64,000 nt of DNA from Escherichia phage ECML-606-1, in sequence record OL631484.1; one strand, written 5' to 3'. Below, in pieces: positions 59,552-63,791 of this stretch (positions are counted from its first letter, which is position 1; every line of letters begins with the position of its first letter). The notes under the pieces are model-generated. The model worked only from the letters and a program-made list of their open reading frames with translations, was not told the DNA's origin and did no database searches. A program made the position numbers and the translations under genes.

Positions 59552-61063
59552 TCAAAAGGCATCGTCATCTTCATCAGGATCCGGCAGGTGCCGATCCTCG
59601 GTCTCCTCCGGGAATTCCTCTCCGGTGTAGAAGTGGACGGCCTTACGCCCGGTCAGGTTCTGCCAGCGACGAATCGCCACATCAGCAAAGCCCAGATCGA
59701 GCTCCATCACGCGTGCGCATACGCCCATTCGCTCGGCGGCCACCAGTGAAGTACCAGAGCCGGAGAAGGGATCCACCATGATGTCATTCAGGCGCACGGT
59801 GTTCTTCATCATGCGCTCCCACAGCTCCACGGGCTTCTGCGTCGGGTGCAGGTCGCTGCGGTCAGGACGCGGCACGCTGACCACGCTGCCCAGCATTGAC
59901 TCCACCTTGGCGTCGCCTTCCACCCGCATGATGAGATCGCCGTACTGGAAATACCAGTTACCCTCGGCATCCTGTTTGAATGGGCTTGAGTCGCCAAACT
60001 CCGCGACGGTCGTTTGCTTCCTGCCACCGTGCCAGCGGTGCTTGGCACCCTTGCGCCAGCCGTACAGGATTGGTTCATGGATGCTTTGGAAGTCAGCCAT
60101 GCCCAGTGTCATGCTGTTCTTCTTCCAGATGACATTCTGGGAGAAGTGGAAACCGACCTTTTCAAACGCCCAGCGCAGGCCATGGGCCATCTTGTCGGAG
60201 TGGCTGATATAGGTCACGCCGCCCGGCTGCATCGCGTCATAGGCGCAGCTCAGGACATTGACGAGGAACTGATTAAAGTCCTCCTCGTTTTTCCAGTCGT
60301 TAGCGATCCCGCCAGTGCGCGAGCGCTCGCCTCCGATGGCCTTATCCATGCGCTTATTCTTCTTGCCCACATCGACGTTATACGGGGGATCGGTCAGCAT
60401 CATGTTGGCCTTCTCGCCCTGCATCAGCGCCAGCCAGCTTTCCGGCTGCTCAGCATCGCCAACATACAGGCGATGAGCGCCCAGCACCCACAAGTCGCCC
60501 GGACGGCTCTTTGGCTCGTCAGGAAGCGGTGGCGCATCATCGGGATCGCTGTCACCTCCTCCTCCCTCCATCGGCGGCAGCTTCATGATCTCGTCCAGCT
60601 GCTCAGGGTCGAAGCCGATAACATCCAGATCGTAGTCCAGATCAGCCAGGGCATTCATTTCGATGCGCAGCATGTCCATGTTCCACTCGGACGCCCGGCC
60701 CAGCTGGTTATCCGCGATGATGTACGCGCGGCGCTTAGCCTCATCCCAGCCAGTGCAGTCCAGCGTCGGCACCATGCCAATAGGGATCGGTGTGCCATCC
60801 GGGAAAGCAATTTGCTTGCCCTCGCTGTACAGCTTCATCGCTGCCAGCTGGCGTCCATGGCCTGCCACAATCCCTTGCTCATCGACGAGGATGGCGTTAG
60901 TCCACCCGAATTCAAGCATTGACGCGGCGACCTTCTGGACGTGCGCCGGGCTATGGTCGTTTGAGTTGTTCACGTAGGGGATGAGGCTATCAACCGGGCG
61001 CAGCCGGATCATCGGGGGGATCACGTCCAGCCCCAACATCTTGTTAAAATCTTTATCAGCCAC
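59552..61063 (-). CDS. DNA methyltransferase (DPPY-type N6-adenine/N4-cytosine) fused to N-terminal ParB-like nuclease domain
   Basis: N-terminal ParB/Srx-like region, catalytic TDPPYN motif, HPTQKP and SAM-binding DPFSGSGT motifs. Confidence 0.75.
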   Translation of the reverse strand: MADKDFNKMLGLDVIPPMIRLRPVDSLIPYVNNSNDHSPAHVQKVAASMLEFGWTNAILVDEQGIVAGHGRQLAAMKLYSEGKQIAFPDGTPIPIGMVPTLDCTGWDEAKRRAYIIADNQLGRASEWNMDMLRIEMNALADLDYDLDVIGFDPEQLDEIMKLPPMEGGGGDSDPDDAPPLPDEPKSRPGDLWVLGAHRLYVGDAEQPESWLALMQGEKANMMLTDPPYNVDVGKKNKRMDKAIGGERSRTGGIANDWKNEEDFNQFLVNVLSCAYDAMQPGGVTYISHSDKMAHGLRWAFEKVGFHFSQNVIWKKNSMTLGMADFQSIHEPILYGWRKGAKHRWHGGRKQTTVAEFGDSSPFKQDAEGNWYFQYGDLIMRVEGDAKVESMLGSVVSVPRPDRSDLHPTQKPVELWERMMKNTVRLNDIMVDPFSGSGTSLVAAERMGVCARVMELDLGFADVAIRRWQNLTGRKAVHFYTGEEFPEETEDRHLPDPDEDDDAF

Positions 61064-61598
61064 GTTCGATCACCACTCTAATGTTGGTTTCATTGCCATT
61101 GCCCTTATCCAGCCCCCACGCCTTACGCTCCCCGTTCTGGGTATTGGTCAGCGTTTCGGAGGTGATTTTGGCGAGTTTAGCCAGATCAAAGTTTTTGTCT
61201 TTGATGGCCTGATAGGCGAGGGTGCGCGGGTAGTCCCATTCCTTCTGGTGCTTCTCCAGCAGGTTGGCGCGAGCCAGCGCAGCGAACTCGGCGGTAATCT
61301 CATCCGCCAGCGCGTTGAGCTCGTCCTCAGTGACTACGCCCAGTTTGGCCCGGCGCTTCTTGAACTCCTCCAGCGCCTCTTTGCTCATCCCGCTCAGGTT
61401 GGGATCCTGCTTGCACCAGCCCTCCACGCGGACTTTGCCAGAAATGGTGTCAGGCGCTACGTTAAATTCCTTGGCGAGAAGCGACGGCGTGGCTTCCGGG
61501 TCACTCTCGTAACGGATCCGCAGTGCCGTCCATGCCTCTGCCGACAGCTTGACGCGAGGCTTACGCCCCGTGGCTTTTGTCTTGCGTGGCGTCACCAT
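61056..61598 (-). CDS. putative DNA-binding protein (HTH; possible small terminase-like or regulator)
   Basis: Basic N-terminus (RKTKATGRKPR) and HTH-like segment SLLAKEFNVAPDTISGKV. Confidence 0.35.
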   Translation of the reverse strand: MVTPRKTKATGRKPRVKLSAEAWTALRIRYESDPEATPSLLAKEFNVAPDTISGKVRVEGWCKQDPNLSGMSKEALEEFKKRRAKLGVVTEDELNALADEITAEFAALARANLLEKHQKEWDYPRTLAYQAIKDKNFDLAKLAKITSETLTNTQNGERKAWGLDKGNGNETNIRVVIERG

Positions 61599-61633
61599 GA
61601 TTTCCTCCTTTAGCGCCGTCCTTGGCGCGGGTG

Positions 61634-61879
61634 TTAATGACTGGTTTCCTGACGTTTCTTTTCCTCTGCGGTGCAGAGGTCAAGCAGCGTCTGCGAGTGG
61701 GCAGCGAAAGACTGCGCCAGCGTTGAGAGGCTGTTTCTCAGGTTGTGCATGTTGCGATCATCGGCCTGCACGGCTACATGCGTCAGATGAGCAGCGGTGT
61801 TTGCACTGTCCTTTGCCAGCTCCAGCAGGCTTGGGATCGGTGTGAACATCGAACAATTCAGCATCGAGGTTTCGGACAT
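61634..61879 (-). CDS. hypothetical small protein
   Basis: ORF overlapping 61758-62162 ORF in another frame; one of the two starts is likely wrong. Confidence 0.25.
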   Translation of the reverse strand: MSETSMLNCSMFTPIPSLLELAKDSANTAAHLTHVAVQADDRNMHNLRNSLSTLAQSFAAHSQTLLDLCTAEEKKRQETSH

Positions 61880-62162: not shown

Positions 62163-62550
62163 GACTTCCTACCCATCCAAACGGGGTTTTCACATAGCCA
62201 GCCGCAATCATGGAGGCGTCTGACAGCTCTTTGAGGCGGGCGTACAGCTCCGGCGCTTTCCCATCCGCGTTTCGCTTTCCGCGCTCGTACAGCAGGCAGA
62301 GATCTTCCCACTCATCCAGATAAGGCGCGATGCGCGGGCAGTTGGCTTTCATCTGCGGGAAGTAACCGCGCAGCTCAGGCACGGCTTTGATGAGGCGATA
62401 GCAGCGACCGAAGTCACTGGCATCATGCGGGATGTCGCCACCTTTCAGCGGGCGCAGGGCGGCTTTCAGCATGGTTTTCGATGATGCCCCGGTGTCGCTG
62501 CTCAGCGACCACTCCAGCATTTTAAACATCATATCGACGGGCATGGTCAT
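62149..62550 (-). CDS. hypothetical protein
   Basis: 133-aa ORF in co-oriented early block. Confidence 0.3.
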   Translation of the reverse strand: MTMPVDMMFKMLEWSLSSDTGASSKTMLKAALRPLKGGDIPHDASDFGRCYRLIKAVPELRGYFPQMKANCPRIAPYLDEWEDLCLLYERGKRNADGKAPELYARLKELSDASMIAAGYVKTPFGWVGSHAEE

Positions 62551-62846
62551 GCGCCGGGCCCTCCAGCAACGTGACGCGCCGGGCCATCCTCAGGCCATCC
62601 GCCATCAACGGGCGCTGGAATGGCTTTCGGGTATTGTACGGTGTCATTGTCATCGCGCAGGCAGGAGATCGCCCGGTTGTTCGCTGTCCAGCAGGTTACG
62701 CCCAGCTCGCTGTCATGGATTCTGGTAATGACACTGGAGAGCACCTTTACGTTTGCGCGGGTACTATCCTCGGCAGGGTTCTGATCGTAGCAGGAGGCGA
62801 CCAGAAACGGCACCAGCGCGGCGATCAGCAGTTTGGCCTTCATCAT
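62547..62846 (-). CDS. putative lipoprotein
   Basis: Signal peptide with lipobox LVASC. Confidence 0.4.
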   Translation of the reverse strand: MMKAKLLIAALVPFLVASCYDQNPAEDSTRANVKVLSSVITRIHDSELGVTCWTANNRAISCLRDDNDTVQYPKAIPAPVDGGWPEDGPARHVAGGPGA

Positions 62847-62918
62847 TGGGTTGTCCTTGTTAAAAAGCGCTCAGAGAGCGTCTGAGCGCGTTATGGTTGA
62901 TTCTATTCTTTTTTGCGA

Positions 62919-63791
62919 CTACTCGCCAGAGCTAGGGCAGACGTGAACCGAATCACTGGCGTAGCACAGCAGGCATTTCGGGCAGTGCATCACATGGGAT
63001 GTCTTATGGCTAACCAATGGCACCGCGCAGGTGTGAGGTGTCCCTGCTTGGTAAACAGCTCCACAGTGCTTGCAGCTTTCTGTGTGAACTGATCCCTGCC
63101 AGTGTTGCAGGTTGTTGTTTGGGTTCCACGGGCTCTTTGGATCCTTCCAGTCGAATGGCGTAACGAACTCGCCGGGGCGCAGCTCAACAGCGTTTTTCGG
63201 TGCCTGATTTCCCCAGCTATCCCATCCCGGATAAGCGTCGCGCGCGAACAGCTCAATGCGCGGCACATCGCCGTATAGCTCCTCGATGCGGTGGAAAATC
63301 TCTTTCGGCTTCTGGGAGTGCTCGCCCAGACAGGAGAAGATGATCTGGCGCACGCCGTTACTGACGCGCTCCAGACCTTTCCCGCGCACGGCGATCAGGC
63401 AGTCCTCGGAGTTGGCCCGGCTGTAGTTGCCACCGTTGATTTTTACCTCGGAATTCAGGAAGTCCAGCATGTCCTCCCAGTCGAAGAATTCCGACTTGTC
63501 CAGCTTGCGGTTGAAGCGCTCCCCAGCGTTCTTGTTGAACTTCACCCACGTAAAGCCCTTCATGGTGCGCACATCGAAGCCCCACGCCTCAGCCAGCGCG
63601 ATAGCCTCCTGCGCGTGGGTGGAGGTGTACCACATAATCAGCACAGCATCGTCATCAGCCAGCGACCAGACCGGGAGGCGCTTGATGTCCTCTTTCTTCA
63701 TGGTCAGGTAGTGGTTTTCAGCGGCACCGTTGCTGATTGTGTTGTCGTAGTGCCATGGCGGATCAGCCAGGATAACTTTGTACTTAGCCAT
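62919..63791 (-). CDS. MT-A70-family DNA adenine methyltransferase with Cys/His-rich C-terminal tail
   Basis: ILADPPW catalytic motif near N-terminus; C-terminal CKHCG...CPKCLLC...HVCP cysteine clusters. Confidence 0.7.
   Translation of the reverse strand: MAKYKVILADPPWHYDNTISNGAAENHYLTMKKEDIKRLPVWSLADDDAVLIMWYTSTHAQEAIALAEAWGFDVRTMKGFTWVKFNKNAGERFNRKLDKSEFFDWEDMLDFLNSEVKINGGNYSRANSEDCLIAVRGKGLERVSNGVRQIIFSCLGEHSQKPKEIFHRIEELYGDVPRIELFARDAYPGWDSWGNQAPKNAVELRPGEFVTPFDWKDPKSPWNPNNNLQHWQGSVHTESCKHCGAVYQAGTPHTCAVPLVSHKTSHVMHCPKCLLCYASDSVHVCPSSGE

Follow-up and report, generated by a model that had tools for sequence, protein, structure and literature searches.

The stretch of Escherichia phage ECML-606-1 studied here (64,000 nucleotides of sequence record OL631484.1; hereafter the window) carries two DNA methyltransferase genes close to its end. 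A reading made from the letters alone (hereafter the sequence-only reading) had placed two distinct methyltransferases within 59552-63791; both open reading frames (ORFs), at 59552-61063 and 62919-63791 on the minus strand, exist with exactly the stated ends, and the two enzymes belong to different families. The first is a fusion of 503 amino acids (aa), in which a predicted ParB/Srx-fold domain precedes a beta-class N6/N4 amino-methyltransferase, and the second is a 290-aa MT-A70 enzyme with a Cys/His-rich C-terminal tail. Judged by PHROG matches, the window covers most of a contractile-tailed phage of ~95 kb. Enterobacter phage phiT5282EW (PQ352032, 95.5 kb) shares 94% DNA identity with the last 5 kb of the window, and remoter relatives are Yersinia phage fHe-Yen8-01, Aeromonas phage ST4, Pseudomonas phages Dolphis, Jeremy and Touem01, and Morganella phage Mecenats66. 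Every gene between 57 and 64 kb of the window lies on the minus strand, and the features that carry the analysis are the following.

59552-61063, minus strand: 503-aa ParB/Srx-fold and beta-class N6/N4 amino-DNA-methyltransferase fusion, GTG start (ORF, Pfam, PHROG 498)
60569-61015, minus strand: predicted N-terminal ParB/Srx (ParB-CTPase-type) domain, residues ~17-165 (AF2 model, Foldseek, invariant GHGR)
60851-60862, minus strand: GHGR, Box-II-like motif
59624-60511, minus strand: methyltransferase domain, residues ~185-480 (Pfam, motif alignments)
60380-60391, minus strand: DPPY
59753-59767, minus strand: FSGSG
between DPPY and FSGSG, minus strand: putative target-recognition insert
59555-59623, minus strand: Pro/acid-rich C-terminal tail ending ...EDDDAF
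61056-61598, minus strand: 180-aa partner with an N-terminal helix-turn-helix (HTH) and a helical C-terminal half (synteny, PHROG)
62919-63791, minus strand: 290-aa MT-A70-family DNA methyltransferase with C-terminal tail (ORF, Pfam, homologues)
63177-63791, minus strand: MT-A70 catalytic core, residues 1-205 (homologue alignments)
63753-63764, minus strand: DPPW
62922-63176, minus strand: C-terminal tail, residues 206-290 (motif and homologue alignments)
63099-63158, minus strand: conserved linker motif PFDWKDPKSPWNPNNNLQHW
63027-63074, minus strand: knuckle 1, C-x2-C-x9-H-x-C
62937-62984, minus strand: knuckle 2, C-x2-C-x9-H-x-C

The catalytic half of the 503-aa protein matches Pfam N6_N4_Mtase (PF01555) over residues 220-459 with 99.6 bits against a cut-off of 26.7, and PHROG 498, 'DNA methyltransferase', aligns with residues 16-489 (E 1e-129). 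DPPY (residues 225-228) lies N-terminal to FSGSG (residues 433-437), which is the beta-class order. Both motifs align with those of CcrM, FSGSG also aligns with motif I of a Thermus enzyme, and both are invariant in an alignment of 20 homologues reaching down to 49% identity. The 290-aa protein is matched by Pfam MT-A70 (PF05063) with 103.4 bits (cut-off 23.9). Its DPPW, at residues 10-13, is invariant in homologues, as are the C-terminal motifs S-x-K-P-x-E ... E-L-F-x-R ... W-G-N, and every invariant MT-A70 position is kept; the protein also aligns with solved chains of a ciliate 'MT-a70 family protein' and of METTL3. Degenerate catalytic motifs, named by the sequence-only reading as an outcome that would speak against it, are thus not found in either enzyme.

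The N-terminal ~165 residues of the 503-aa protein match PHROG ParB-like families (E 1.8e-36), in line with the ParB-like domain previously proposed to precede the DPPY-type enzyme. By comparison, a Pfam search with the isolated residues 1-188 at E<=5 gave no match, ParBc (PF02195) included, and a profile search of PDB sequences with the N-terminal region gave nothing relevant, so that the fold assignment was settled by structure prediction and Foldseek alone. The AlphaFold (AF2) model of residues 1-170 has a predicted local distance difference test score (pLDDT) of 85.7, and its top 13 Foldseek matches in the PDB are all ParB N-domains, KorB, Noc, PadC, Spo0J or sulfiredoxin (probability 0.82-1.00, and at least 0.92 for 12 of the 13). 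The modelled domain has a ParB/Srx fold. GHGRQLAA (residues 68-75) forms its Box-II-like motif, in which G68, H69, G70 and R71 are invariant and A75 is invariant or nearly so; just one of the three arginines of the canonical Box II, GERRxRAA, is retained. Other features of a canonical partition ParB are not recognised either: the N-domain runs directly into the methyltransferase, no ParA was recognised nearby, and the HTH resides solely on the separate 180-aa protein.

The fusion itself is an ordinary, abundant, phage-enriched and already published architecture. A large protein collection holds 7134 homologues at E<=1e-10, and 516 phage records match the protein, 277 of them covering at least 80% of its residues. 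In 2011 the fusion had already been noted in Wolbachia prophage WO (PMC3089641), and a 2025 survey of the ParB-CTPase fold lists the N6_N4 methyltransferase fusion among the most phage/prophage-enriched, 'perhaps in anti-defense', giving no role to the ParB part (PMC12704722). We found no characterised relative of the 503-aa protein, the best plasmid matches being at most 38% identical and themselves uncharacterised ParB-methyltransferases, and a literature search found no paper that gives the specificity of any ParB-methyltransferase. Within the ~500-aa subfamily, a Pro/acid-rich tail that closes with an acidic D-x-F (…EDDDAF, …GPDIF, …DEDVF) is present in 19 of the 20 aligned sequences; it is missing from the shorter ParB-methyltransferases of Streptococcus Javan phages, AcaML1 and Mecenats66. 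The tail resembles the C-terminal tips of bacterial single-stranded DNA-binding protein (SSB) and of T7 gp2.5, which serve as docking sites for partner proteins.

Directly upstream of the ParB-methyltransferase lies the 180-aa partner gene, whose stop overlaps the methyltransferase start by 8 nt here and by 1-8 nt in four relatives; in the Yersinia record as annotated, the two ORFs are 10 nt apart. The ~500-aa ParB-methyltransferase always has such a partner, of 170-220 aa, in the position before it: this holds for seven phages, for an E. coli element of 100 kb (44% identity; L011 4451-5008) and for a Kaistia prophage (hhalign probability 99.7%; L012 4396-5004), so that the family spans phages of Enterobacterales to an alphaproteobacterial prophage. 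No Pfam model describes the family, and some of its homologues match HTH Pfam families. The C-terminal half weakly matches PHROG 1206, a small terminase subunit (TerS) family: three of six members match, with a best E of 2.7e-6 and an E of 9.8e-4 for the window protein. AcaML1 Gp23 was considered as a further relative, and the comparison was not significant. The conserved coupling of the two genes suggests that the two proteins work together.

The MT-A70 core (~205 residues) is 60-66% identical to enterobacterial phage and prophage enzymes of ~215 aa (HK639, Klebsiella prophages, phiES15) and 62% identical to p32 of Serratia phage vB_SspM_BZS1. In MboI/DpnI protection assays BZS1 p32 methylates GATC, and the MT-A70 enzyme of Tn1549 is also GATC-specific (PMC7556043). 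We therefore predict from homology that the 290-aa enzyme most likely has Gm6ATC specificity (m6A, N6-methyladenine). GATC is not avoided in the window, where its 398 copies, 0.95 of the Markov expectation, are evenly spread.

Beyond the core, the tail contains two modules of identical spacing, C240-x2-C243-x9-H253-x-C255 and C270-x2-C273-x9-H283-x-C285, which fits the Cys/His-rich, zinc-finger-like tail of the sequence-only reading. The linker motif PFDWKDPxxPxNPNNNLxHW and the second knuckle are kept in all tail-bearing homologues; the ligands of knuckle 2 are invariant in 10 of 10 aligned tails, and knuckle 1 is present in the closer homologues only. Of 617 MT-A70 homologues, those with the tail form no more than about a dozen clusters at 90% identity, which reach down to 54% identity with the window enzyme. 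Both tail-bearing homologues that were traced to contigs, P0012 and P0004 (the latter by its 39,118-bp contig, shared with a homologue of the partner gene), come from this phage lineage, and P0001 and P0012 reside on contigs of 90-95 kb. In a HMMER search of 1.84 billion representative proteins, the tail profile found four MT-A70 clusters. The accessory domains had both been called unusual; the word suits the tail and does not suit the ParB fusion, which is published and has thousands of homologues. Curated zinc-finger families did not account for the tail, the best being Pfam zf-C2H2_3 (E 0.0034) and Zn_ribbon_15 (E 0.027), both far under their cut-offs. The AlphaFold model of the full MT-A70 protein, made from an 18-sequence alignment, has a pLDDT of 56.8, with the tail below 55, and was left out of the fold search.

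In phiT5282EW the tail is missing altogether. DNA homology with the window breaks at 62932-63228, where phiT5282EW has a tail-less 221-aa MT-A70 gene followed by a 196-aa ORF (9900-10490 of its stretch). The product of this ORF matches PHROG 1035 'endonuclease VII' (E 2.4e-35) and several HNH families; Pfam does not recognise it, and the GenBank record splits the ORF into two small 'hypothetical' ORFs. Since a relative 94% identical to the window thus has an endonuclease VII/HNH gene instead of the zinc-knuckle tail, the tail is dispensable. The MT-A70 cores of the two phages are 88% identical, as compared with 94-95% elsewhere, and this lower value would fit a recombination tract beside a mobile endonuclease gene. 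No relationship was found between the 196-aa ORF and the HNH ORF of a sibling contig (L004).

Searches of the neighbouring genes with Pfam, PHROGs and NCBIfam recognised no restriction endonuclease, other nuclease or defence family. Because no neighbour matches any nuclease family, both methyltransferases are taken as orphans. Their surroundings combine a conserved frame with a variable content. Metagenomic relatives at 54% identity and the E. coli element retain the order MT-A70, small genes, partner, ParB-methyltransferase, a protein of ~470-490 aa and a giant protein. By comparison, further methyltransferases come and go around this frame. The region in relatives contains a C5-cytosine methyltransferase (L003 5436-6956), replaced by an HNH gene in sibling contigs (L004 5713-6915); phiT5282EW has a 158-aa DPPH methyltransferase (12121-12597 of its stretch) just beyond the equivalent of the window end, where the Yersinia phage has, at the corresponding place, a 155-aa gene with the annotation 'DNA methyltransferase'; and Aeromonas phage ST4 has a second ParB-methyltransferase, ST4_001 (L009 6179-7579). 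In addition, the E. coli element carries an Acb2/Tad1-hairpin protein between its two methyltransferases (variable loci of this element: L011 4061-4435 and 8100-9086). Methyltransferases that vary around a conserved frame mark this as an anti-defence region engaged in an arms race, and the two enzymes of the window stand at the junction of this small-gene (early/anti-defence) region with the structural genes of the ~95-kb myovirus.

The composition of the window bears the mark of restriction directly. Twenty of the 64 hexanucleotide palindromes are absent from it, among them CCCGGG, GGCGCC, CCGCGG, CTGCAG, TCCGGA, GTCGAC, AAGCTT and ATGCAT, although base composition predicts 7-31 copies of each (at least 12 for 19 of the 20), and 26 of the 64 occur at most once. 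CTAG and GGCC are reduced to 0.28 and 0.68 of expectation, respectively. A 37.5-kb stretch of Yersinia phage fHe-Yen8-01 is devoid of 22 palindromes, in a set partly different from that of the window: CAGCTG occurs 0 times there and 84 times in the window, while ACCGGT occurs 16 times there and not at all in the window. These counts show that the lineage avoids Type II sites host-specifically and that restriction is a strong, dominant selective force on it. The avoided palindromes did not reveal the specificity of either methyltransferase, as no simple adenine context separates the avoided from the tolerated set (CTGCAG 0 versus CAGCTG 84; GCATGC 0 versus CCATGG 28).

We propose that the two genes encode functional orphan amino-methyltransferases, a Dam-like MT-A70 enzyme and a ParB-fold enzyme with an HTH partner, by which the phage pre-methylates its progeny DNA against restriction, and we give this reading a probability of about 0.6. 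The MT-A70 protein would act as a Dam-like Gm6ATC enzyme, supplementing host Dam or standing in for it while phage DNA replicates fast; the two C2HC knuckles would serve it as an accessory, non-essential module for binding nucleic acid or a partner. The ParB-fold fusion would methylate a different, probably short or degenerate, motif; distinct specificities, which had been suggested before, are likely for two enzymes of different families. Its ParB/Srx domain would probably act as a nucleotide-dependent module for dimerisation or DNA engagement rather than as a nuclease, and the enzyme would be made together with its translationally coupled HTH partner. Progeny genomes pre-methylated in this way could escape systems that are not dodged by loss of sites, mainly Type I/III and GATC-type systems, while many Type II palindromes would be handled through site avoidance. 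The general idea of the sequence-only reading, orphan methyltransferases used for self-methylation, is reasonable in this light. Its anti-restriction component is in keeping with intact orphan enzymes in a variable anti-defence region, and we infer that role from these features; the breadth that it ascribed to the methylation does not survive the absence of 20 of the 64 palindromes, A-containing sites among them.

Several observations weigh against our proposal. The GATC assignment of the MT-A70 enzyme derives from 62% identity, and enterobacterial hosts already possess Dam, so that protection does not obviously require a Dam-like enzyme from the phage. Broad adenine methylation is excluded, since the avoided sites contain adenines and blanket methylation would make avoidance unnecessary; m6A in such sites (CTGCAG, AAGCTT, GTCGAC) blocks the cognate enzymes. 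Of 28 purified ParB-fold proteins, 17 bound no nucleoside triphosphate (NTP) (PMC12704722), so that the ParB domain of this enzyme may lack the function of a nucleotide switch. Furthermore, with a TerS-like gene coupled to it, the ParB-methyltransferase could instead serve packaging or regulation.

This last point leads to a reading in which methylation serves phage DNA transactions, marking the packaging-initiation site or timing late genes, and the ParB-methyltransferase and its TerS-like partner act at the packaging site. Dam methylation of the P1 pac site provides a precedent. In its favour, the partner gene reaches into the methyltransferase start, recurs in groups as distant as Enterobacterales and Alphaproteobacteria, and has weak matches to TerS families, no TerS being recognisable beside the large terminase; in other phages, such as Javan460, a ParB-methyltransferase lies just upstream of the terminase genes. 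The TerS similarity is nevertheless weak for the window protein (E 1e-3), the pair is 17 kb from the large terminase, and no methylation-dependent site was identified. In addition, a fixed regulatory mark would explain the variable number of extra methyltransferases in relatives less well than an arms race does. We consider a packaging or timing role unlikely.

It is less probable again that one or both enzymes are packed into the virion and co-injected as P1 DarB is, to act as infection begins, either in cis on the genome that enters or on nucleic acid of the host, with the zinc-knuckle or acidic tail as a possible packaging or targeting signal. The GenBank record of fHe-Yen8-01 labels both orthologues (features 113 and 117) 'phage particle associated protein', a label shared by the giant protein with the ADP-ribosyltransferase domain and by many neighbouring small proteins, and the methyltransferase genes lie immediately upstream of this giant virion protein. 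The support is this annotation note; literature searches found no publication on fHe-Yen8-01 or on Dolphis. The note is attached to more than 30 proteins of the non-structural region, a spread that suggests carry-over picked up by sensitive proteomics, and phiT5282EW is wholly without the tail, while tail-less MT-A70 enzymes of ~215 aa are ordinary prophage genes.

A more speculative reading, to which we attach a low probability, treats the ParB-methyltransferase, with its SSB-like acidic D-x-F tail, and its partner as a 'split ParB'. The HTH partner would load the ParB-fold methyltransferase at a specific site on phage DNA, or onto the packaging or replication machinery, and the ParB-type nucleotide switch would then clamp the enzyme, which would slide along phage DNA and methylate it processively, so that an enzyme of relaxed specificity and potential toxicity would be confined to the phage genome. 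The zinc-knuckle tail of the MT-A70 enzyme would be a second, independent answer to the same targeting problem.

Two further alternatives are very unlikely. That the N-terminal domain is an active nuclease, making the 503-aa protein one that cuts and modifies, for example by degrading unmethylated host DNA, draws on the historical Pfam/PHROG name 'ParB-like nuclease', which the sequence-only reading had also taken over; the fold is that of a nucleotide-binding ParB N-domain or sulfiredoxin with no known nuclease active site, the conserved motif corresponds to the phosphate-binding GxxRxxA(A) of Box II, and the literature treats the ParB fold as an NTP-binding switch (PMC12704722). Equally hard to sustain is the view that the MT-A70 protein uses its knuckles to methylate RNA or single-stranded nucleic acid in parallel with METTL3, as membership of the MT-A70 family, the two tandem Cys/His modules and the need of METTL3 for two CCCH fingers in substrate binding (PMC7544214) might suggest; its closest characterised relatives are DNA GATC methyltransferases (PMC7556043), a viable sibling phage has no tail, and the knuckles are C2HC, C-terminal and unrelated in sequence to the METTL3 fingers.

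Comparison with known systems places most of these features among familiar kinds. The 503-aa protein shares with the PHROG 498 ParB-CTPase-fold and N6_N4 fusions (PMC12704722), including Met1/Met2 of Wolbachia WO (PMC3089641), the domain order, the GxxR motif, DPPY followed by FxGxG, residence on phages and orphan status. The ~500-aa subfamily differs from the other fusions by a ParB-domain insert owing to which the Pfam model misses the domain, by the D-x-F tail and by the obligatory overlapping HTH partner gene. Similarly, the MT-A70 enzyme has the DPPW and all the MT-A70 motifs of the Dam-like (beta2-class) enzymes of temperate phages (BZS1 p32, HK639) and Tn1549. The temperate-phage enzymes have ~215 aa, no tail and an adjoining integrase gene, while the window enzyme has an 85-residue double C2HC tail and belongs to a ~95-kb myovirus; the window shows no integrase. 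With METTL3 it shares an MT-A70 domain devoid of its own target-recognition domain together with two tandem Cys/His modules, which supply substrate binding in METTL3 (PMC7544214); METTL3 differs in that its fingers are N-terminal and CCCH, it needs METTL14 and it acts on RNA, so that its likeness to the C-terminal C2HC modules is an analogy only.

A functional likeness links both window enzymes to M.EcoGII and M.EcoGIX/M.BceJIII, orphan adenine methyltransferases of mobile elements that are thought to protect entering or progeny DNA against many restriction systems: M.EcoGII is a non-specific prophage enzyme stated to be beta-class, and M.EcoGIX and M.BceJIII are single-strand-specific enzymes of plasmid leading regions (PMC5778455, PMC7736820). 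No close sequence match to either was found. An M.EcoGII-like identity was rejected because M.EcoGII has 349 aa and no extra domains, and palindrome avoidance argues against non-specific activity. P1 DarB would be a possible functional analogue if the 'particle associated' notes of the Yersinia phage are correct; a relationship in sequence was neither looked for nor seen. DarB is a virion-packaged, multidomain anti-restriction protein of >2000 aa with methyltransferase and helicase domains.

Three details are new: a double zinc-knuckle tail particular to this lineage, for which phiT5282EW provides a natural knock-out; the partner gene conserved upstream of the ParB-methyltransferase; and the SSB-like tail of the ParB-methyltransferase subfamily. 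The rest is of known kinds. The analysis annotates two genes listed as 'hypothetical protein' in phiT5282EW, the closest GenBank relative, where all 39 of the 39 features in the stretch examined carry that label. It predicts that DNA of this lineage carries Gm6ATC and at least one further amino-methylation motif, a point that bears on cloning, on methylome sequencing and on host-range engineering of therapeutic phages. The HTH partner and the SSB-like acidic tail offer testable handles on the role of the ParB/Srx domain in these common phage fusions, and the tail-plus/tail-minus pair of ECML-606-1 and phiT5282EW is a natural experiment on the zinc-knuckle tail. Palindrome avoidance next to a few methyltransferases would amount to a division of labour between two anti-restriction strategies in one lineage.

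The tail profile also weakly matches unrelated proteins with 3-8 tandem CPxC-x10-12-H-[VI]-CP units, such as P0243 (632 aa) and P0247 (178 aa), and one protein with these repeats has an apparent signal peptide and is apparently secreted. The unit seems to be a generic, uncurated mini-module, a small repeat module that seems undescribed.

Between and beside the two methyltransferases, the following smaller features were recorded.

59474-59501, minus strand: terminator-like hairpin in the spacer just past the ParB-methyltransferase stop, 10-bp stem and T-run (consensus scan)
61634-61879, minus strand: doubtful 81-aa ORF overlapping the 134-aa gene
61758-62162, minus strand: 134-aa gene, probably real (100% aa identity in phiT5282EW)
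62149-62550, minus strand: 133-aa gene, PHROG 1229 (E 1.5e-24; 76% identity in phiT5282EW)
62547-62846, minus strand: 99-aa predicted lipoprotein (weak match to PHROG 9917)
62867-62889, minus strand: terminator-like hairpin in the 72-nt spacer past the MT-A70 stop, 9-bp stem (6 GC pairs) and TTTTT (consensus scan)

Four to five small ORFs thus separate the methyltransferase genes, in agreement with the small genes noted between them before. The 134-aa protein is 51% identical to a Yersinia phage 'particle associated protein', has no family match in library searches and shows no similarity to the Acb2/Tad1-like protein of the E. coli relative. In phiT5282EW the annotation chooses the overlapping 81-aa ORF, which shows 95% conservation there and has no other homologue; of this pair (61634-61879 and 61758-62162), the annotated ORF is probably wrong. 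The N-terminal MMKAKLLIAALVPFLVASC of the 99-aa protein reads as a predicted signal peptide with lipobox. The hairpins past both methyltransferase stops suggest two transcription units, each ending with a methyltransferase, as judged by a scan that records consensus matches only and whose total hairpin count does not exceed that of shuffled sequences.

Elsewhere in the window, the structural genes that define the phage were located by PHROG matches.

24377-26173: tail sheath
31276-32808: major head protein
35867-37678: portal
39268-41883: large terminase, 871 aa

The large terminase is unusually long, its core beginning at about residue 231. No small terminase gene is recognisable beside it (39268-44778 region), the upstream gene encoding a 949-aa tail-fibre-like protein; PHROG 6921 matches both this gene and a second fibre gene, located at 7571-9751. 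A six-frame motif scan of the window found no additional (D/N/S)PP(Y/F/W/H) methyltransferase gene. The 471-aa protein encoded downstream of the ParB-methyltransferase (57633-59048) was considered as a third methyltransferase like ST4_001, and has no similarity to ST4_001 and no family match. Further along, the giant protein (2257 aa, 46959-53732) has its ADP-ribosyltransferase exoenzyme domain at the very C-terminal end (residues 2152-2233, E 5e-9), the orthologue in the Yersinia phage bears the virion-associated note, and the protein is adjoined by a 325-aa NUDIX-domain protein (45611-46588).

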